DNA from: Deltaproteobacteria bacterium
Lineage (GTDB): Bacteria > Myxococcota_A > Polyangia > Fen-1088
NCBI GenBank assembly: GCA_033763315.1
Contig: JANRKS010000009.1
Span: 96,001 to 160,000 of the forward strand
Reading direction: 5' to 3'
Length of the DNA stretch: 64,000 nucleotides
Under the pieces are notes generated by a model, which was given only the letters and a program-made list of their open reading frames with translations, searched no databases and was not told where the DNA came from. This document shows, piece after piece, positions 12,638-21,000 of the stretch. Each line of letters opens with the position of its first letter. The first letter of the stretch is position 1. The translations under genes and the position numbers were made by a program.

Positions 12638-13693
12638 ATGGCGCGTAACTGCGTAGGCCTCGACATAGGGTCGAGCTCGATCAAAATGGTCCAGTTAAAG
12701 GAAGCTTCCGACGGCATCCACCTGGTCAATTTTGGCATCGAGCTTCTGCCCTCCGAAACCATCGTCGACGGCGCCATTATGAACCAAACGGCGGTGGTGG
12801 AAGCCATTCGCCGGCTGCGCGACAACTTGCGCATTCGCCAAAAGGACGTGGCCACCGCCATTTCCGGGCACTCGGTGATCATCAAGAAGATCCAGGTGCC
12901 CGAGATGACGCCCGAGGAGCTTGAAGAGCAGATCCCGTGGGAGGCTGAACACCACATCCCGTTTTCCAAAGACGACGTTCACATTGATCACGAGATCCTG
13001 AACAAGAGCAACGGTCAGGGCCAGATGGACTTGATGCTGGTGGCCGCCAAGAAGGAAGTGGTGGAGGACTACTCACTGGTGGTGCGCGAGGCGAAGCTGA
13101 TGCCCAGCGTGATGGAGGTGGCGGCGTTTTCAGTGCAGAACGCCTTCGAGGTGGCTTACTCCATGCCTGCCGACGAAGCGGTGGTGCTGGTGAACGTGGG
13201 CGCTGCGCTTTCAAATATCAACATCGTGGCGGGCGGGACCAGCGCTTTTACGCGCGACGTGACGATGGGTGGCGACGCGTTCACAGAAGAAATTCAAAAG
13301 CGCCTGAACGTGAGTCGCGATGAAGCGGAAGCGTGGAAGATTGGCTCCACGGGCGACGGCGCGCACGAAGTGATTCCGCAAGAAGTGGAAGCGGTGTTGA
13401 CTGAAGTGGCCGAGAGCATGGCCGGCAAGTTTCAGCGCTCGCTCGATTTTTTCTTGGCCACCGCGGGCGATTTGAAGCTGACCAAAATCTATTTGTGCGG
13501 CGGCGCGTGCAAGGTGCCCGCGTTGCAGAAGGCGCTGGAATCCCGGGCCAAAGTGCCGGTGGAAGTGATGGATCCATTTCGCCGCTTCATCGTCGACGAG
13601 AAGAAGTTCGACATGACCTTCTTGCAGGAGCACGCGCCCGAGGCCACTGTCGCTGTGGGTCTTGGGCTGCGCCGCGTGGGGGATAGGCAATGA
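12638..13693 (+). CDS. pilM: Type IV pilus assembly protein PilM
   Basis: VGLDIGSSSIK, IVDGAIM, SVIIKKI, EA..HIPF, LVAAKK actin-like fold; GGAAGG SD. Confidence 0.95.
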   Translation: MARNCVGLDIGSSSIKMVQLKEASDGIHLVNFGIELLPSETIVDGAIMNQTAVVEAIRRLRDNLRIRQKDVATAISGHSVIIKKIQVPEMTPEELEEQIPWEAEHHIPFSKDDVHIDHEILNKSNGQGQMDLMLVAAKKEVVEDYSLVVREAKLMPSVMEVAAFSVQNAFEVAYSMPADEAVVLVNVGAALSNINIVAGGTSAFTRDVTMGGDAFTEEIQKRLNVSRDEAEAWKIGSTGDGAHEVIPQEVEAVLTEVAESMAGKFQRSLDFFLATAGDLKLTKIYLCGGACKVPALQKALESRAKVPVEVMDPFRRFIVDEKKFDMTFLQEHAPEATVAVGLGLRRVGDRQ

Positions 13694-14331
13694 TTCGCAT
13701 AAACCTCCTCCCCCAGAAGAAACAACGCAAAGCCGAGGCGGGCCAAAAGCAGCTCGTCTATATGGCGTTCTCGCTCTTGGTGGTGGTGGGCGGTCTGGTG
13801 GTGCTGCACATGAGCGTTCAAGGCGAGCTGGACGCCATCAACCGGGACAACCAAGTCATTCAAGCCGAGATCGACAGGTTCAAATCAGAGCTTGGCGACT
13901 ACGACAAAGTGCGCGCGCAGCGCGAAGAGCTTTTGCGCCAGCAAGATACGATCAAGAAACTCGAAGAGCGCCGGACGGGGCCCGTGTTCCTGTTGCGCGA
14001 AATCGCTGAGATCTTGACCGCAGGCAAGGGCCCCACGTTCGACCGTCTGACTTACGAAGAGACGGTCAGGCGCGATCCCAACTCGGGCTTCAACGCCGCG
14101 TGGGACGTGCGACGGGTGTGGCTGCAAAGCTTCGAAGAGCAGGAGCGCCACGTGAAGATCGCGGGCGCCGCGAAATCCAACGAAGACGTCGCTGAGTTCC
14201 TCAAACGGTTGCAGGCGTCTGTGTTCTTTCAGAACGTTGTTCTGGAGCAGACATCGCAGGTGGCTTCGGGACGCGCCAACACCAACGTGAAACACATGAC
14301 GTTCAACCTCAGTACCGGAGTGATTTACTGA
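13690..14331 (+). CDS. pilN: Type IV pilus assembly protein PilN
   Basis: MIRINLLP N-terminus, single TM, coiled coil, VWL..F; ATGA overlap with pilM. Confidence 0.92.
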   Translation: MIRINLLPQKKQRKAEAGQKQLVYMAFSLLVVVGGLVVLHMSVQGELDAINRDNQVIQAEIDRFKSELGDYDKVRAQREELLRQQDTIKKLEERRTGPVFLLREIAEILTAGKGPTFDRLTYEETVRRDPNSGFNAAWDVRRVWLQSFEEQERHVKIAGAAKSNEDVAEFLKRLQASVFFQNVVLEQTSQVASGRANTNVKHMTFNLSTGVIY

Positions 14332-14332
14332 C

Positions 14333-14926
14333 ATGAACGAACTTATCGCAAAGCTGCTGAAGCTGAAGACGCCCGCCAAGGTGGGCGCCTGCATTGGCGC
14401 AGCGGTTGCCATTTGTGGCCTCTACTACGTGGCGTTCTATCAAGACGTTGATGAGGGCATCACCCGCGCCAAGGCAGCCCAAGAAGCCGCCAAACAGGAA
14501 CGCGAATCTTACGAGAAACGCAAGACTGAATACTTGGCGTATCGCAACGAGCTGACGTTGTTGCAAGAAAAGCAGCGCGAAATTTTGCGCGCGCTGCCCA
14601 AGGAGCAAGAAATTCCATCGTTCATCAGCAGCATTCAAGAGCAGGCCGAATTGGCCGGTCTCGAAGTGCTGACGCTGAACATCGACGACGAGCTGCCCGA
14701 GCCGCTTTACATCAAAATTCCTGTGAAGATGGAAGTGCGCGGCAGCTACCACGCCATCACCAAATTCTTCAAGAGCGTGTCGGAGCTGCGGCGCATTGTG
14801 AACGTGGAAGAGTTGGCGATGAGCCCCGAGCGCACCGTGAGCGAGGCCGAAAGCGATGCGCCCGTGAAACTGCGCGCCCGCTTTATTGCGGCGACCTTCC
14901 GTTACCGCGAAGGCAAAGGGAGCTGA
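14333..14926 (+). CDS. pilO: Type IV pilus assembly protein PilO
   Basis: N-terminal TM, LP...EIPSF, G.YH.I..FF..V..L.RIVN; operon position. Confidence 0.92.
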   Translation: MNELIAKLLKLKTPAKVGACIGAAVAICGLYYVAFYQDVDEGITRAKAAQEAAKQERESYEKRKTEYLAYRNELTLLQEKQREILRALPKEQEIPSFISSIQEQAELAGLEVLTLNIDDELPEPLYIKIPVKMEVRGSYHAITKFFKSVSELRRIVNVEELAMSPERTVSEAESDAPVKLRARFIAATFRYREGKGS

Positions 14927-14928
14927 CC

Positions 14929-15468
14929 ATGAAGAATGTGCAAGCGCTTTTGATTGCAGGCAGTGTGGCCTTTGCGGGGGTGGGGACGGGCGCCTTGGCT
15001 CAGGCGCCAGCCAAGCCTGCCGCTGTGGCGACCGGCACCATCGCGCCTGCCGCGCCTGCCACCCCCGAACAGCGGATGACGGTGTTGCGGCGCAAGGTGT
15101 TGCGCGATGAGGATTTCGTTGAATCGGATGTGAATCGCGATCCCTTCCGATCGTTTATCTCCTTGTTTGAAACCAAGGCCGCGCCGACGTCTCGGGCGAT
15201 GCCCGCCATCTTCGATAAGTTTGCGCTTGAAGAGCTTTCGCTGATCGCGGTGATCTCCGGCACCGAACGGCCTATGGCCATGTTTCGAGATCCCGGAGGC
15301 ATGGGGCAGGTGATCAAGCGTGGTGACTACCTTTCAAAATCGGGGGCCCGGGTGACCAAGATCCTAGGCGACCGCGTAATTCTTGAGCTCAATGAGGTCG
15401 TCGGGACTGGCGAAGCCCGTGCGATCGAAAAAGCGATTCTCGTCAATCCGGAGGCAGCTCAACAATGA
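14929..15468 (+). CDS. pilP: Type IV pilus assembly protein PilP
   Basis: Signal peptide, RDPFRSF, F.LEEL.LIAVI, DP.G.G..IKRG; lies between pilO and pilQ. Confidence 0.85.
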   Translation: MKNVQALLIAGSVAFAGVGTGALAQAPAKPAAVATGTIAPAAPATPEQRMTVLRRKVLRDEDFVESDVNRDPFRSFISLFETKAAPTSRAMPAIFDKFALEELSLIAVISGTERPMAMFRDPGGMGQVIKRGDYLSKSGARVTKILGDRVILELNEVVGTGEARAIEKAILVNPEAAQQ

Positions 15469-18400
15469 GCCGAACGAAGGCAATCATGGGATCCATGGCC
15501 GCGCATAAGTGGATCGTCCTAACAGTGGCTGGCGCGTTGGTGCAGGTGCAAGCGCCTGCCGTGGCCGCGGCTCCGGCGTCTGCAGAGGCAGCGGCGGCGG
15601 GGCCGATCGTGGTGCAAGAGCAGCCTGATGGGCGTACGCGCTTGACCATACGAGCTTCCGCCAAACCAAAGTTCACAACTTGGAAGATGGAGCGACCATC
15701 GCGCGTGGTGGTGGACATCACTGGCGCCACCGTTGCTGGCGTGGAATCGCCGTTCGATGCGGGCACCTTCGCGGTTGGCAATGTCAGCGCAGGCACAGAG
15801 GCAAGCAAGACCCGCGTGACGCTTACACTGCGCCGAGGTGCGGATTACCAAGTGCAAGCGCAAGGCAACAACATCGTTGTAGACGTCACGCCGTGGGAGG
15901 CACCGCCTCGTGCAGCCGTCGCGTCAGATCCGGCGCTGCTTGAGGCTGCGCGCAAAGAAGCGGCAGACGCGGCCAAAGCGCGCGCGGAAGCCGAGGCGCG
16001 AGCGAATAAGGCCGAAGCGGAAGCCCACAAGGCTGTGGCTGCGGCGAACCAAGCGCAGGCCACAGTAAAATCTCTGGCGGAAGAGAAGCAACAGGCCGAA
16101 CGGGCGCGGCAAGAAGCGGCGGAGCGTGCGGCGCGTAGCGTGGCCGATGAACGCAAGCAAGCCGAACTTGCAAAGCAAGAAGCCGCAGCGCAAGCCGCGC
16201 GTCTTGTGGCCGAAGAACGTCGCCAAGCGGAACAGGTGCGCAAGCAAGCCGAACTTGCGAAGCAAGAGGCCGCAGCGCAAGCCGCGCGTCTTGTGGCCGA
16301 AGAACGTCGCCAAGCGGAACAGGTGCGGCAGCAAGCCGCTTTGCAAGTGCGCCAAACCGCCGCCGAGGCGTTGGCAAGACTGGACGCCGAAAAGGCTGCA
16401 TTGGAAGCGTCACGGGCGAAGGCCGAGGCTGCGCAGGTTGAAGCCGCGAAGATGACAGAAGCCCTGGCCACGGAACGCGCGGCGATCGAACGCGCGCGCA
16501 AGGGTGTGGAAGACGCCGCCCGTGCGGCTGCGGTCGCCAAGCAAGCCGCCACAGAAGGACAACGTCGCAGTGAAAGGGACGCGGCCGACAAGGCCGCCAA
16601 ACACCTGGCGCAAGAGCAAGCGGCACTTGATGTGCGGCGCGCACAGGCTCAAGCCTCCGAGCAAGCCGCCGTCCAGGCGATGCAACGCCTGGCCCTACAA
16701 ACGCGCGAGGTGGAAAGCCGTCAACAGCAAGCTGAACACGCGAGGGCACAGGCCCTGGCTGCCGCCCAAATGCTGGAGAAGGACCGTCAACAAGCGGCTT
16801 CTGCGCGTGCGGAGGCGGAGCGCTTGCGTGCCAACGCCCAGGACGCTGACCGCAAAGCCAAAGCTTTGCTCGCGGCGGCGATGGCCGAGCAGAAGCGGGC
16901 AGAGGAGCGGCAGAAACAAGGGCGCCAAGACGACGAGCAAGCCAGCCGTATGGTGGCGCAAGCCCGGCAACAAACCGAACAAGCTCGCGAGGCCGCAGAG
17001 GCTGCACGATCAGAGGTGGCGCGCTCCGAGGCCGAACGCAAACGATTGGTGAACGAGCGTGAGGCGCTCGCAAAACAACAAGCGGCGCTCGCCATGGCGG
17101 AGCAACAAGCCGCCGCCGTGGCAAAACGAGCGAACGACGTCACGGCCAAGGCTGCGGCCGTGGAAGCAGCGATGGCGCAGCTTGAGCGAGACAAGCAAAG
17201 CCTCGCGCAGCAACGCAAAGCCTTGGAAGCCGAGCAGGCCACGATTGCCGCCGCCGCCAGGGCCAATGCGGCCGAGCGCGAGAAGATCGACAGCAAAGCC
17301 TCGTCTTTTGAGAAGGCTATGAAAGATCAGCAGCTGGCGTTGGCAAAGGCCGCGGCGGCGCAAGAGCGGGAACAAGCGCGCTTGCGGCAAGCCGAACAAG
17401 AGCTCTTGGCAACCAAGGGTGAACTTGCAAAGCGGGAACAAGCCTTGGCTGCGGCGAAGAAGGATGCCCAAGGTAAACGCGCAAGCGAAGAGCAGGCAAA
17501 GTTGGATGCGGCTGAGGCTGCGCTGAAAAAGGCGCTCGCCGCCCACGCAGAGGCAGAACAACGTCGTCAATCACAAGAAGATAAACTGAGCGCGCTCGCG
17601 CTTGAGCGGCAATCGCTTGAAGCGAGCCGCGCCAAAATGGTGCAAGAGTTGGACGCCGTCAAATCCGAGTTGGCCTCGGCCAAAGCGGAAGTGGCCCGCC
17701 TCAAGGCCGCGCCGAAACCCGCCCCCGCGCCGGTGGTTGCCGTGGCCGCGGCGCCCGCGGTGCGCCCCGCCGTCGCGCCCGTTCAGGAGAACCACGTTGT
17801 TTACGCCGCTGCGGAACGTCCTCGCAGCGTCACCTTGCGTGTGCCCAGCCGCGTGAGCCGCATCGACTTTGTGGACGAGCCCGCGCGTTCGTCGGTGATC
17901 ATCGATCTCGAAGAGCCAACGGAATTCTCCATTGAACGCAGCACGGGCCGTCGTGTCACCCTGCGTTTGCATCACGCCGATTTGCCCAAGCTGCTCGAAC
18001 GCAGCATGGACGCCACTCAATATTTCGGCCCCGTACGCTTGATCAATTCGTACCGCGACCCAAGCGAACGTGGTTCTGTTCGCGTGGAGGTGGAACTGGC
18101 TGAAATGGTGCCGAACCGCGTGCGCACCGACGGCGCCCGGCTGTATTGGGATTTTGATAAGGCGCGACCGGGCAGCGCCGCCACCGTTGATGTGTTCGAG
18201 CTGCCTCCCGTGCGCGTGGCGGCGTTTCACACGATGGCCTTGCCTGTGATGGTGGCGCAAGAAGGCGCCGGGTCATCGCGTCGGCCTTCAGCCTCCAAGA
18301 AGCGCTTCACTGGCCGACGCATCGATCTTGATTTCAAGGGCGCCGACATCCACAACATCTTGCGCCTGTTGGCCGAGGTGGGCGGCGTCAACATCGTCAC

Positions 18401-19625
18401 CTCTGACGACGTCAAAGGTGAAGTGACCATCAAGATGCGCGACGTGCCCTGGGATCAGGCCTTGGACGTGGTCTTGCGGGCCAAGACGCTGGGCCAAGTG
18501 CGCGAGGGCAATCTGATCCGCGTGGCCCCTATCCAGGTGCTTGAGAAAGAGCTTGAGCAGGAGATCTCCAAGCAAAAGCAAATGACCGAGGTGATGCCCA
18601 CCGAGACGCGTCTCATTGGCGTCTCGTATGCTGAAGCCAAAGAGCTTGAGTCGCGTGCCAAGGACCTGCTTTCGGCGCGGGGCAAAGTGTCTGTGGACGA
18701 ACGCACCAACAATTTGATCGTTTCAGACGTGGCCAAGAATCTGGCCTTGGTGGAAGAGCTGGTGCGCAACCTAGACACACAGACATCTCAGGTTGTCATC
18801 GAGGCGCGCATCATCGAAGCGCGTTCAACCTTCGTCCGTGCCCTGGGCGTGCAGTGGGGCGGCACCACCTTCTTGGACGCCGAGCACGGCAACCCCACAG
18901 GCCTGGTGTTTCCGAACTCCGTCGGCATCGGCGGTGGCGCTTCTGACTCCATCGGCAGCACGCAAGGCTTGGTGCCTAACCCACGCAGCGGCATTGCGGG
19001 TTCAGCAAGCCAAAGCCCCAACTATGCGGTGAACTTGCCTGCGGCGGTCGGCGCCGGCAGCGGTGGTGCTTTGGGCCTCACTTTGGGATCCGTTGCGGGC
19101 GCTTTGAATTTGAACTTGCGCTTGTCGGCGCTTGAGCAAAGTGGCCAGGTACGGATCTTATCGTCACCGCGCATCTCCACGATGGACAACGTGCAAGCGT
19201 CTATCGAGCAGGGCGTGGCGATTCCGATCTCGGTGGTCAGCGCCCAGGGCGTACAAACGGTGTTCGTAGACGCAAAGCTCAACCTAACAGTAAAGCCTCA
19301 CGTCACCAACGAAGGCACCGTCATCTTAACTGTGCATGTGACACGTAACGAACCTGACTTCGTGAACACGGGCGCTCGTGGCGACCCCACCATCTTGAAG
19401 AAGGAAGCCAAGACCGTGATGTTGGTGCGCGACGGTGACACCGCGGTGATTGGTGGTATCTACCAACGCAACTCAGGCTTGAACTATAGCAAGGTGCCTT
19501 TCTTCGCGGACATTCCCATCGTTGGCTTCTTCTTCCGTAGCCGCAGAGAGAACGACGACCGCACGGAATTCCTTGTTTTCATCACACCGCGCATCGCCAA
19601 CCGATCGCGCTCCTTGGCGCAATGA
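15465..19625 (+). CDS. pilQ: Type IV pilus secretin PilQ with very long coiled-coil insertion
   Basis: Two AMIN-like domains, GRRIDLDFKGADIHNILRL, VPWDQALD, VDERTN, QVVIEARIIEA, GDTAVIGGI, FITPRI secretin motifs. Confidence 0.95.
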   Translation: MSRTKAIMGSMAAHKWIVLTVAGALVQVQAPAVAAAPASAEAAAAGPIVVQEQPDGRTRLTIRASAKPKFTTWKMERPSRVVVDITGATVAGVESPFDAGTFAVGNVSAGTEASKTRVTLTLRRGADYQVQAQGNNIVVDVTPWEAPPRAAVASDPALLEAARKEAADAAKARAEAEARANKAEAEAHKAVAAANQAQATVKSLAEEKQQAERARQEAAERAARSVADERKQAELAKQEAAAQAARLVAEERRQAEQVRKQAELAKQEAAAQAARLVAEERRQAEQVRQQAALQVRQTAAEALARLDAEKAALEASRAKAEAAQVEAAKMTEALATERAAIERARKGVEDAARAAAVAKQAATEGQRRSERDAADKAAKHLAQEQAALDVRRAQAQASEQAAVQAMQRLALQTREVESRQQQAEHARAQALAAAQMLEKDRQQAASARAEAERLRANAQDADRKAKALLAAAMAEQKRAEERQKQGRQDDEQASRMVAQARQQTEQAREAAEAARSEVARSEAERKRLVNEREALAKQQAALAMAEQQAAAVAKRANDVTAKAAAVEAAMAQLERDKQSLAQQRKALEAEQATIAAAARANAAEREKIDSKASSFEKAMKDQQLALAKAAAAQEREQARLRQAEQELLATKGELAKREQALAAAKKDAQGKRASEEQAKLDAAEAALKKALAAHAEAEQRRQSQEDKLSALALERQSLEASRAKMVQELDAVKSELASAKAEVARLKAAPKPAPAPVVAVAAAPAVRPAVAPVQENHVVYAAAERPRSVTLRVPSRVSRIDFVDEPARSSVIIDLEEPTEFSIERSTGRRVTLRLHHADLPKLLERSMDATQYFGPVRLINSYRDPSERGSVRVEVELAEMVPNRVRTDGARLYWDFDKARPGSAATVDVFELPPVRVAAFHTMALPVMVAQEGAGSSRRPSASKKRFTGRRIDLDFKGADIHNILRLLAEVGGVNIVTSDDVKGEVTIKMRDVPWDQALDVVLRAKTLGQVREGNLIRVAPIQVLEKELEQEISKQKQMTEVMPTETRLIGVSYAEAKELESRAKDLLSARGKVSVDERTNNLIVSDVAKNLALVEELVRNLDTQTSQVVIEARIIEARSTFVRALGVQWGGTTFLDAEHGNPTGLVFPNSVGIGGGASDSIGSTQGLVPNPRSGIAGSASQSPNYAVNLPAAVGAGSGGALGLTLGSVAGALNLNLRLSALEQSGQVRILSSPRISTMDNVQASIEQGVAIPISVVSAQGVQTVFVDAKLNLTVKPHVTNEGTVILTVHVTRNEPDFVNTGARGDPTILKKEAKTVMLVRDGDTAVIGGIYQRNSGLNYSKVPFFADIPIVGFFFRSRRENDDRTEFLVFITPRIANRSRSLAQ
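16152..16327 (+). repeat. 87-bp (29-aa) tandem duplication inside pilQ
   Basis: Copies begin at 16152 and 16239; RKQAELAKQEAAAQAARLVAEERRQAEQV twice, with two synonymous differences seen. Confidence 0.9.
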
Positions 19626-20155
19626 CATCAGACAAACCCATCGTGTTGATAGGATTTATGGCCACCGGAAAGAGCACCGTCGGGCGGTTGGTTGCCGCGC
19701 GTACGGAACGGGCCTTTATCGATCTTGATGCCGCCATCGAAGCAGCGGCGGGAAAGTCGGTGGCCGAGATCTTCAAACAAGAGGGTGAGCCTGGTTTTCG
19801 CGCGCAAGAATCTGCGGCCCTGCAAATGGCATTGGAAAAGCGCGATGTCGTCATCGCCACGGGGGGCGGAGCCGCGTGTCGTGAAAACAACCTGCGCGCG
19901 ATGTTGGAAGCAGGTTTCGTGGTGGCGTTGCAGGCCGATCCCGCTGAGGTGATCCGCCGGGTGGGATCGGGATCAGGACGGCCATTGCTTGATGGCCAAG
20001 CCGATCCTCAACAAGCCGCCATGAAATTGCTCGCCGAGCGCGAGCCGTTTTACGCGCGGGCACACGCCCGCATCGATACCGTGGGCAGGCCGCCCGAGCA
20101 TGTGGCCACCGACGTTATCAACGCTTTCGACAGCACAAGGAGCGATGAGCGATGA
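19622..20155 (+). CDS. aroK: Shikimate kinase
   Basis: IGFMATGKSTVG, DLD..IE, GEPGFR, VIATGGG, RPLL, R.PFY; classic position after pilQ. Confidence 0.93.
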   Translation: MTSDKPIVLIGFMATGKSTVGRLVAARTERAFIDLDAAIEAAAGKSVAEIFKQEGEPGFRAQESAALQMALEKRDVVIATGGGAACRENNLRAMLEAGFVVALQADPAEVIRRVGSGSGRPLLDGQADPQQAAMKLLAEREPFYARAHARIDTVGRPPEHVATDVINAFDSTRSDER

Positions 20156-20196
20156 ACCGCACACAGCAGAATGAGGGCACCTTGAAGAGGCACAGC

Positions 20197-21000
20197 ATGA
20201 ACACAGCGATGAAATCAGTTGTGGCCTTGATGGCCGCCGCGGTTCCGTTGCTGGCGGGATGCACGACCGACGTCAACGGCGCCTTCATCATCGTACAGAA
20301 CCAGGTGCCGGAGCTTGTATCGGGCGCTTGCGCTGTGCCCAGCAAGGCTTCCGAAACGCGGCAGATCGCAGGCACCGGGGCCTATGATGTGGATCTCGAC
20401 AAGCCGTATCCTTACTTTCTCTACCCGTTGCTCCGCAACGATCTGCCGGTGGCCGCCACCGAGGGCACCATTGAGGTGAACCGCATTGAATACACGGGCG
20501 TGGAGGTGAAGATCGAACCGCCCGCAGGCGTGGCCTTTCCTTCCACCGCCGATTGCCCCACCGAGTTCAAATTCGCCGAACGTGCCTCCATCCCGCCCAC
20601 GGGTGAGGTGGGATCTGCGGTGCAGGTGTTCTTGCCCTGTCACTCGGCCACGCTGCTGAAGATGTTCAATTCAGGCGCTCTGCCCAAAGACTTCGCCACA
20701 TATGTTCGCTTCAAAGTCACTATCCGCGCCATCGGCAAGCACGGCAATGGCACCTTGAAGTCCGATCCGTTTGAGTACATCGTCCGCGTCTGCAAAGGGT
20801 GCTTGCAAACCGGCTATTCCCCGATGTTTGCTCCCTTCGAGTACCCTGGGGTGCCCGCCTGCACGGCTCTTGCCGCGAATCCGTATCAAGGAAACCCTTG
20901 CAACCCGGCCCAGGACGGTCAAATCCTTTGTTGCAAGAAGGCCGACGATAAGCTGGATTGTCCCGGCCGCCCGGCCGCCACTTCAGCCGCCGCGCCGTAA
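20197..21000 (+). CDS. Cys-rich lipoprotein of unknown function
   Basis: Lipobox LLAGC, 10 further Cys (VCKGC, LCC); GAGG SD before ATG 20197. Confidence 0.75.
   Translation: MNTAMKSVVALMAAAVPLLAGCTTDVNGAFIIVQNQVPELVSGACAVPSKASETRQIAGTGAYDVDLDKPYPYFLYPLLRNDLPVAATEGTIEVNRIEYTGVEVKIEPPAGVAFPSTADCPTEFKFAERASIPPTGEVGSAVQVFLPCHSATLLKMFNSGALPKDFATYVRFKVTIRAIGKHGNGTLKSDPFEYIVRVCKGCLQTGYSPMFAPFEYPGVPACTALAANPYQGNPCNPAQDGQILCCKKADDKLDCPGRPAATSAAAP

Follow-up and report, generated by a model that had tools for sequence, protein, structure and literature searches.

An inherited helical module between the AMIN domains of a Myxococcota PilQ secretin is predicted to fold back into antiparallel hairpins

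PilQ secretins typically, though not universally, have one or more AMIN domains at their N-terminus. In Myxococcus xanthus PilQ (entries 3jc8 and 3jc9), N-terminal AMIN domains are followed by N0, N3 and the secretin domain, and the gene is part of a pilMNOPQ operon. The passages available from a 2023 study of PilQ localisation describe three AMIN domains joined by flexible linkers, without a helical module (PMC10653833). Here, we analyzed a stretch of 64,000 nucleotides from an uncultured member of the Polyangia (Myxococcota; contig JANRKS010000009.1, positions 96,001 to 160,000), referred to below as the window. Its pilQ gene encodes a protein of the same general plan, which differs from the M. 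xanthus protein in having two AMIN domains with 593 residues of predicted helix between them. Relatives from the same class (Sorangium spp., Chondromyces apiculatus and Sandaracinus; L065, L066, L075, L072 and L109) have cores that are 59-61 % identical and the same AMIN1-AMIN2-core order, but a Pro/Ala-rich linker of only ~20-30 amino acids (aa) at the position of the insert, in frames of 745-835 aa. Other Myxococcota PilQs, among them WP_162687416.1, share the insert-bearing architecture with an insert of different length and sequence, and all of these are annotated simply as PilQ; no study devoted to them was found. By every feature tested, the protein of the window is a PilQ, and it is the helical module that sets it apart from all characterized PilQs.

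TolA domain II is an Ala- and charge-rich, Pro-poor helical spacer of the periplasm, and TolA is anchored in the inner membrane and energized by TolQR. The PilQ insert resembles this domain in composition only: it has no detectable sequence-family relationship to it (no Pfam and no NCBIfam match to the insert at E<=1), is bordered by AMIN domains at both ends and belongs to an outer-membrane pore. The nearest precedent for the architecture that we found is the combination of AMIN with a TolA-like alpha-helical charged region in delta-proteobacteria, given as item viii of section 2.2 by de Souza et al. 2008 (PMC2572700). In the portion of that article available to us, the combination is listed apart from PilQ (item iv) and is not described inside a secretin. 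Full-text literature searches turned up no account of a PilQ with a helical or coiled-coil insert. The accessible parts of a 2018 survey of myxobacterial type IV pili (PMC6060248) and of the 2023 localisation paper leave the insert unmentioned and do not contain the word 'coiled', and the PilQ and AMIN passages of a 2026 PilY1 survey (PMC13190605) make no mention of it. An initial reading of the window made without database searches (the sequence-only reading) had regarded this architecture as undescribed, and we found no paper to the contrary. We are dealing with a real, widespread variant of a well-known protein that is apparently undescribed in print.

The product of pilQ is a genuine outer-membrane secretin of the type IVa pilus machine. 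It scores 408.4 bits with the NCBIfam PilQ model TIGR02515 (cut-off 284.35), and its Pfam matches include Secretin (E 1e-44), Secretin_N (E 1.8e-12), STN and N0, together with two N-terminal AMIN matches above the Pfam cut-off. Among solved structures, M. xanthus PilQ 3jc8 (901 aa; E 2.3e-148) is the closest match, which aligns to residues 797-1381 of the query only. Matching solved PilQ chains are 571-901 aa long, in line with the 700-900 aa that the sequence-only reading had taken as usual for characterized PilQs, and they form rings of 12-15 chains per entry; by homology, the protein of the window would likewise form a 12-15-meric gated pore in the outer membrane. Superposition of AMIN2 on Escherichia coli AmiC 4bin (VIA Z 14.5; root mean square deviation (rmsd) 2.1 over 105 residues) and on the M. 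xanthus PilQ 3jc8 model (VIA Z 13.7) confirms the AMIN assignment, and Foldseek matched the domain to 4aqz, 4bin and 4av2. The sequence-only reading had thus been right about a PilQ of 1386 aa with an insert between two AMIN domains, and its Pro-free run of ~590 Ala, Glu, Gln, Lys and Arg-rich residues ending in PAPAP, placed at 15930-17710, is correct within 3 nucleotides (nt) of our boundaries (Table 1). Our statement as a whole, that a genuine PilQ carries an inherited helical module, up to and including the folded-back shape of this module, has in our estimate a probability of about 0.55.

The insert lies between a Pro at residue 156 and the next Pro at residue 750, with residues 157-749 Pro-free. 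It contains five Gly (347, 365, 486, 652 and 670) and one aromatic residue, is composed mainly of Ala (31.9 %), Glu (13.1 %), Gln (11.8 %), Arg (10.6 %), Lys (7.7 %) and Leu (7.4 %), and reads ...LKAAPKPAPAPVV... at its C-terminal end. Helical low-complexity runs were scored by a rule of our own (25-residue window, no Pro, at least 96 % helix-compatible and at least 60 % Ala, Glu, Gln, Lys or Arg); among the 14,946 frames of at least 150 aa in the genome, the insert is the longest such run, and the runner-up has 270 aa. An ESM Atlas feature search with residues 157-749 returned no usable match. The charges in the insert are ordered: opposite-charge pairs at i+3/i+4 number 117, versus 71.8+-7.3 in shuffled sequences, and same-charge pairs 19, versus 71.0+-6.9. 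A local heptad score over 28 residues, home-made and unvalidated, gave 3.29 versus 1.12+-0.42 after shuffling. The same holds for most of 56 inserts from across the phylum, with a heptad z>3 in 47, an opposite-charge z>3 in 48 and a same-charge z<-3 in 55. No single heptad register spans the whole length of the insert.

We compared these properties to those of two other kinds of sequence. In single alpha-helix (ER/K) domains, well over half of the residues are charged and few are hydrophobic. Because only ~35 % of the insert residues are charged (Glu plus Asp 16.5 %, Lys plus Arg 18.3 %), with Leu, Val, Met and Ile at ~13 %, we rejected this assignment, even though an enrichment of i+3/i+4 salt bridges is common to such domains. 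An intrinsically disordered linker was rejected as well, as AlphaFold2 (AF2) predicts helix over residues 158-748 bar four short breaks. The truly disordered part is the linker at 749-794, where the predicted local distance difference test score (pLDDT) is 31-43 and secondary structure is absent.

We modeled residues 46-960 with AF2 from 19 aligned sequences. The model contains two all-beta AMIN domains and, within the insert, five helices (158-206, 218-364, 368-485, 490-666 and 670-748) with block pLDDT values of ~60-91, mostly 65-91, and with breaks at 365-367, 486-489 and 667-669. Gly365 and Gly486, which lie at the first two of these breaks, are both kept in three of three congeners. Residues 210-490 folded alone yielded two antiparallel helices connected by a two-residue turn, with a pLDDT of 92.5 (all five models at least 89.4) and a predicted template modeling score (pTM) of 0.57. 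The helical matches of VIA to the long model cluster at model residues 247-404 and 564-676, centered on two breaks, and these matches are solved antiparallel hairpins: the dynein stalk, SMC arms, a colicin receptor-binding domain, a ROP variant, PspA and MacA. Across the turn of the 210-490 model, VIA superimposed 9hmx (Z 13.1, rmsd 1.9 over 166 residues), 8i3j (rmsd 1.7 over 134) and 2ysu (rmsd 2.1 over 123). At the second fold-back (model residues 564-681, corresponding to 609-726 of the protein), 9cfs fitted with an rmsd of 1.3 over 85 residues and 2ysu with 2.0 over 117. What the predicted insert shares with the colicin E2/E9 receptor-binding domains, the hairpins of HlyD/MacA-type adaptors, the dynein stalk and SMC arms is the arrangement of two long antiparallel helices and a tight turn, a likeness in the shape of the predicted model only (Z 10-14), without sequence relationship. 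Foldseek returned only AMIN-domain matches for the model and nothing significant for its helices. A complex prediction with two copies of residues 490-749 scored 0.15, compared with a mark of 0.42, and speaks neither for nor against self-association.

These models bear out the earlier suggestion of a helical region with coiled-coil-like patterning, to which the charge and heptad statistics also point, and we consider it very probable that the insert is helical. The module is predicted to be made up of long helices, which reverse direction where a turn contains Gly and pair as antiparallel two-helix coiled-coil hairpins of ~12-26 nm, as calculated for arms of 79-177 residues at 0.15 nm per residue. 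The sequence-only reading had instead derived a rod of 85-90 nm and proposed that such rods serve either as radial guy-ropes or as folded-back spacers. The rod length proved to be the contour length of a fully extended helix only (~89 nm), whereas AF2 divides the insert into five helices. An extended state, in which a straight helix or a parallel coiled coil between protomers runs up to ~89 nm between outer membrane and wall and ties AMIN1 to the peptidoglycan far from the pore, would suit the lack of Pro over 593 aa with only five Gly, the local heptad and salt-bridge patterning, and the presence of peptidoglycan-binding AMIN domains at both ends of the insert. It is at odds with the AF2 breaks, which fall at sites containing Gly (two such sites are conserved in the genus), and with the fold-back at the examined turns; moreover, the ~1,690-aa inserts of relatives would, if straight, measure ~250 nm, which by our own estimate is on the order of the cell radius. 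We consider radial guy-ropes unlikely. Of the two earlier proposals we favor the folded-back spacers, with antiparallel hairpins predicted at both places examined, and judge it fairly probable that the insert is folded back rather than fully extended.

Several points weigh against the inherited, folded-back module as we describe it. The pTM of the long AF2 model is only 0.29. Z values of 12-14 for the helices are in a range attainable by any long helical pair, and the VIA matches speak to the shape of the model, not to ancestry. At the second turn, conservation of Gly670 is lacking: the congeners have Asn and Ser at this position. The hairpin geometry comes from an AF2 monomer, and in the real, large oligomer helices could pair between chains. 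The heptad statistics depend on a score of our own making, and a global Fourier spectrum of hydrophobic, charged and Ala positions contained no 3.5- or 7-residue peak above shuffles over the 593 aa. A roughly ninefold variation in length, at least five losses of the insert without loss of PilQ, and a nonsynonymous divergence (dN) ~8 times that of the core argue against a precise, indispensable role. Finally, we found no experiment or expression data on any insert-bearing PilQ.

We investigated whether gene and insert are real. Two congeners (G002 and G001, of the same genus) have a colinear insert of 607 and 665 aa, respectively. Among the three congeners, the insert is 50-56 % identical, compared with 92-93 % for the secretin core, 85-88 % for AMIN2 and 66-71 % for AMIN1, and all differences in insert length are whole codons. 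As the chance identity at the composition of the insert is ~16 % (our own sum over composition), the inserts are homologous and not merely alike in make-up. Their dN is 0.39-0.47, versus 0.05-0.06 in the core. The synonymous divergence (dS) is saturated among the three (>1 or undefined), which makes dN/dS of the insert unreliable, and we thus relied on dN and identity. At either end of the insert, 50-70 residues are conserved within the genus; conserved end motifs were not found between lineages.

A chimeric contig, a frameshifted pseudogene or a wrong strand could in principle have produced the insert in a draft genome of 40 contigs and 90.85 % completeness. In two other public runs, with gene shares of 0.16 and 0.08, contigs of 151-307 bp covered parts of the insert with 0-9 differences, and none of them bridged the AMIN1-insert or the insert-AMIN2 junction. 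Such an artefact is nevertheless hard to reconcile with an uninterrupted frame of 1386 codons whose start and stop are coupled to those of the neighboring genes, with a codon use of the insert that resembles the remainder of pilQ, and with an architecture that recurs in congeners assembled independently and in over 100 database proteins; we regard it as negligible and are practically certain that gene and insert are genuine. Disorder and misassembly had been named by the sequence-only reading among the possibilities that would speak against its proposal. The insert is instead predicted to be helical and the congeners are colinear.

The same kind of module is found at the same position of PilQ in many Myxococcota lineages. 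In the distribution counts that follow, a locus is counted when it holds a run of at least 100 aa, and frame lengths are measured from stop to stop, somewhat above true protein lengths. At the level of the class, 23 of 32 loci have a run (129-957 aa), seven are clearly without one and two are cut at a contig end. Named GenBank loci have a run in 16 of 80 cases, all from uncultured metagenome-assembled genomes (MAGs); the run is absent from three Sorangium genomes, from Chondromyces apiculatus DSM 436 and from MAGs labeled Labilithrix, Byssovorax, Polyangium and Sandaracinus, whose frames are 745-839 aa long. Loci of intermediate length (846-1082 aa) contain a run in 2 of 20 cases, and long-frame loci of other classes in 19 of 20 (251-1,686 aa). 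The order AMIN-helix-AMIN-N0-N3-secretin was present in all five long-frame loci that were domain-scanned. Overall, inserts of ~186 to ~1,690 aa occupy the same position in PilQs of several Myxococcota lineages. A protein search limited to 762-2426 aa, and hence biased to long forms, returned 118 of 121 proteins with at least 100 residues of such helix, those with names being 'Polyangia bacterium' MAG proteins annotated just as PilQ. One insert-bearing protein is identical to WP_162687416.1 (1014 aa), which the database names as PilQ of the cultured species Bradymonas sediminis and which has a 251-aa version of the insert.

An even sample of 121 Myxococcota genomes gave a PilQ match in 105, with a median frame of 1017 aa and a maximum of 2478 aa. 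At least 1000 aa were reached by 54 of these frames, at least 1,100 aa by 38, at least 1200 aa by 24, at least 1386 aa by 18 and at least 2000 aa by nine; frames of at least 1,100 aa fall into the length range where nearly all inspected PilQ frames carry the insert. The insert is therefore no peculiarity of this gene but a trait of whole lineages, in which its length varies. In one genome, the PilQ match (G024:C5:389116-390428) is split and has three TGA codons inside, and this gene may be broken.

We mapped presence and absence of the insert on a FastTree phylogeny of the secretin core with 151 rows (59 with insert, 82 without, 10 unscored); the rows are not a random sample, kin are not independent and the tree is midpoint-rooted without an outgroup. 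The trait changes state six times, as it did in an earlier tree of 131 rows. With the root at the midpoint, three insert-less groups branch off basally, before one large clade that has the insert along its backbone, and the insert is missing from five groups nested in this clade, which we read as one gain and five losses. Two members of the same family f4 differ in this respect, L018 (G039) having a 710-aa helical insert and L024 (G027) a 790-aa frame without one, and this contrast suggests a recent loss. One of the five nested groups is the sister group of the lineage analyzed here (L027, L028 and L029, from G015, G016 and G010). In it, the cores are 75-78 % identical and the PilQ frames 554-799 aa long; by eye, only a stretch rich in Gly, Ser, Pro and Ala lies between leader and N0, and the AMIN-helix-AMIN module is gone. 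We found no neighboring helical open reading frame (ORF) in relatives with frames of 544-799 aa that would point to an origin of short PilQs by gene splitting.

As an inherited module, the insert evolves rapidly in sequence and shifts in length by in-frame duplications and deletions, with its helical character kept. The 87-bp duplication in the insert sits at a place where the congeners differ by indels, and tandem repeats in the inserts of two relatives have periods of 21, 42, 21, 24 and 33 nt, equal to 7, 14, 7, 8 and 11 residues. From these few arrays, the periods give a weak hint that changes preserving the helical phase may be tolerated best. The insert could alternatively be a nearly neutral, expandable linker, the segment between AMIN1 and AMIN2 having drifted by slippage into an Ala-rich, charged low-complexity helix that merely joins the domains. 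The low identity and high dN of the insert relative to the core, the range of lengths, the five or more losses, the recent duplication in the window, the lack of conservation of the insert ends across lineages and the ~25-aa linker with which cultured Polyangiaceae manage would all be expected from such a linker. Drift does not readily explain why the insert has been kept in many lineages with cores no more than 50-55 % identical, why almost all of the 56 inserts lack Pro and have a non-random order of charges, why dN stays below the saturated dS, why most repeat units span a multiple of 7 or 11 residues, or why the turn glycines are conserved in the genus. We consider a drifting linker rather unlikely.

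At the locus, pilQ is embedded in a pilMNOPQ-aroK operon. Its ATG overlaps the stop codon of pilP (ATGA), with GGAGG 10 nt upstream, its own stop overlaps the start of aroK in the same manner (ATGA), and pilMNOP lie directly 5' of it with overlapping stop and start codons. Directly after aroK, again with a stop/start overlap, follows an ORF of 282 aa (20152..21000, plus strand) without a Pfam family at E<=0.01. A 766-aa database protein (P0112) contains both secretin and shikimate-kinase Pfam domains and is apparently a read-through or fusion of pilQ and aroK at the 4-bp overlap.

Table 1. Coordinates of pilQ, of the parts of its product and of the neighboring genes, as positions in the window.
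Feature	Position	Strand	Remarks
pilQ, type IVa pilus secretin	15465..19625	+	single ORF, 1386 aa
N-terminal leader, residues 1-49	15465..15611	+	hydrophobic, Ala-rich; presumed signal peptide, judged from the translation
AMIN domain 1, residues 50-141	15612..15887	+	Pfam PF11741, E 2e-12; all-beta in AF2 model, pLDDT 84-90
Pro-free helical insert, residues 157-749 (593 aa)	15933..17711	+	composition; helices predicted by AF2
Predicted antiparallel hairpin 1, helices 211-365 and 368-489, turn at Gly365	16095..16931	+	AF2, VIA
87-bp (29-aa) tandem duplication in insert	16152..16338	+	Tandem Repeats Finder; 2.1 copies, 96 % matching
Helices 490-666 and 670-748, predicted second fold-back at ~667-670	16932..17708	+	AF2, VIA
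Pro/Ala/Val-rich linker with PAPAP, residues 750-794	17712..17846	+	Pro 19.5, Ala 29, Val 22 %
AMIN domain 2, residues ~795-898	17847..18158	+	Pfam AMIN at ~800-889, E 1.9e-5, 25.1 bits (cut-off 20.5)
Secretin core: N0/STN 955-1022, N3 (Secretin_N) 1048-1109, Secretin 1222-1378	18327..19598	+	Pfam
pilM	12638-13693	+	351 aa, ordinary length; Pfam PilM_2
pilN	13690-14331	+	213 aa, ordinary length; Pfam PilN
pilO	14333-14926	+	197 aa, ordinary length; Pfam PilO
pilP	14929-15468	+	179 aa, ordinary length; Pfam PilP
aroK (shikimate kinase)	19622..20155	+	Pfam SKI, E 1.2e-42

Elsewhere in the genome, the next longest helical runs belong to RNase Y, an HlyD-type adaptor, an OmpA-family protein, a response regulator and two proteins without a Pfam match. 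A 404-aa frame (L117, G000:C22:89552-90763, minus strand) has ~190 aa of similar helical low complexity followed by an OmpA-family peptidoglycan-binding domain at 300-394, and is a second envelope protein of the genome that combines a helical spacer with a wall-binding domain. The 270-aa run, second longest in the genome, is part of a 731-aa frame (L114, G000:C5:236760-238952, minus strand) without a Pfam family at E<=0.001. In a frame of 912 aa (L113, G000:C7:301044-303779, plus strand), several helical low-complexity runs come after a response-regulator receiver domain, an arrangement that recalls FrzS-type pilus regulators. Of three AMIN matches in the genome, two are in PilQ, and the third lies in a 188-aa frame (L146, G000:C22:149148-149384, minus strand); no second AMIN-bearing amidase-type frame was found in the genome.

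How might the module act in the pilus machine? It takes the place of the short, flexible AMIN1-AMIN2 linker of Sorangium-type PilQs, and in the role that we propose, each protomer of a 12-15-meric secretin ring would contribute its folded-back arms. The resulting crown of stiff arms, 12-26 nm long, could surround each pore as a semi-rigid spacer or scaffold of the periplasm. There, the arms may determine how far apart, and in what geometry, the distal AMIN1, the wall and the other parts of the machine are held, or may brace the machine against the wall or neighboring parts. A generally wider periplasm is not indicated, since PilN, PilO and PilP are of normal size. We put forward this role as structural spacer or anchor tentatively, at somewhat less than even odds. 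The arms could also be a docking platform that binds a periplasmic component (the PilN/PilO coiled coils, a TsaP-like ring, a pilotin or neighboring secretins) and so organizes or regulates the machine. This proposal is by analogy only, as the look-alike hairpins include, according to their entry titles, a colicin E2 receptor-binding domain with BtuB and a colicin fragment with TolC. We have identified no partner, the neighboring genes are ordinary and no obvious candidate stands out among the other proteins with long helical runs in the genome; with a sequence as poorly conserved as that of the insert, which would be unusual for a specific interface, docking appears very unlikely.

PilQ is among the best-studied parts of type IV pili, and current models derive from species with short, flexible AMIN linkers. 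With 38 of 105 sampled frames at 1,100 aa or more, a large share of the phylum has hundreds to more than 1,600 helical residues at this position, which, multiplied by 12-15 protomers, would place a very large mass of ordered periplasmic protein around each pore. At least one cultured species apparently carries a short version, which makes the question testable at the bench. The arms, with contour lengths of ~30 to ~250 nm, might in many Myxococcota even form a periplasmic cage or lattice that mechanically couples the pore to distant wall or to neighboring pilus machines. We think this unlikely; if true, the spacing, number or load-bearing of polar pili would be set by a periplasmic scaffold of a kind not seen before. 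A mechanical or organizing role of the module, if true, would be a new element in secretin biology and would bear on how such machines are anchored to peptidoglycan, and if the module is only a drifting linker, it would still be a striking case of a giant insertion tolerated in an essential nanomachine.

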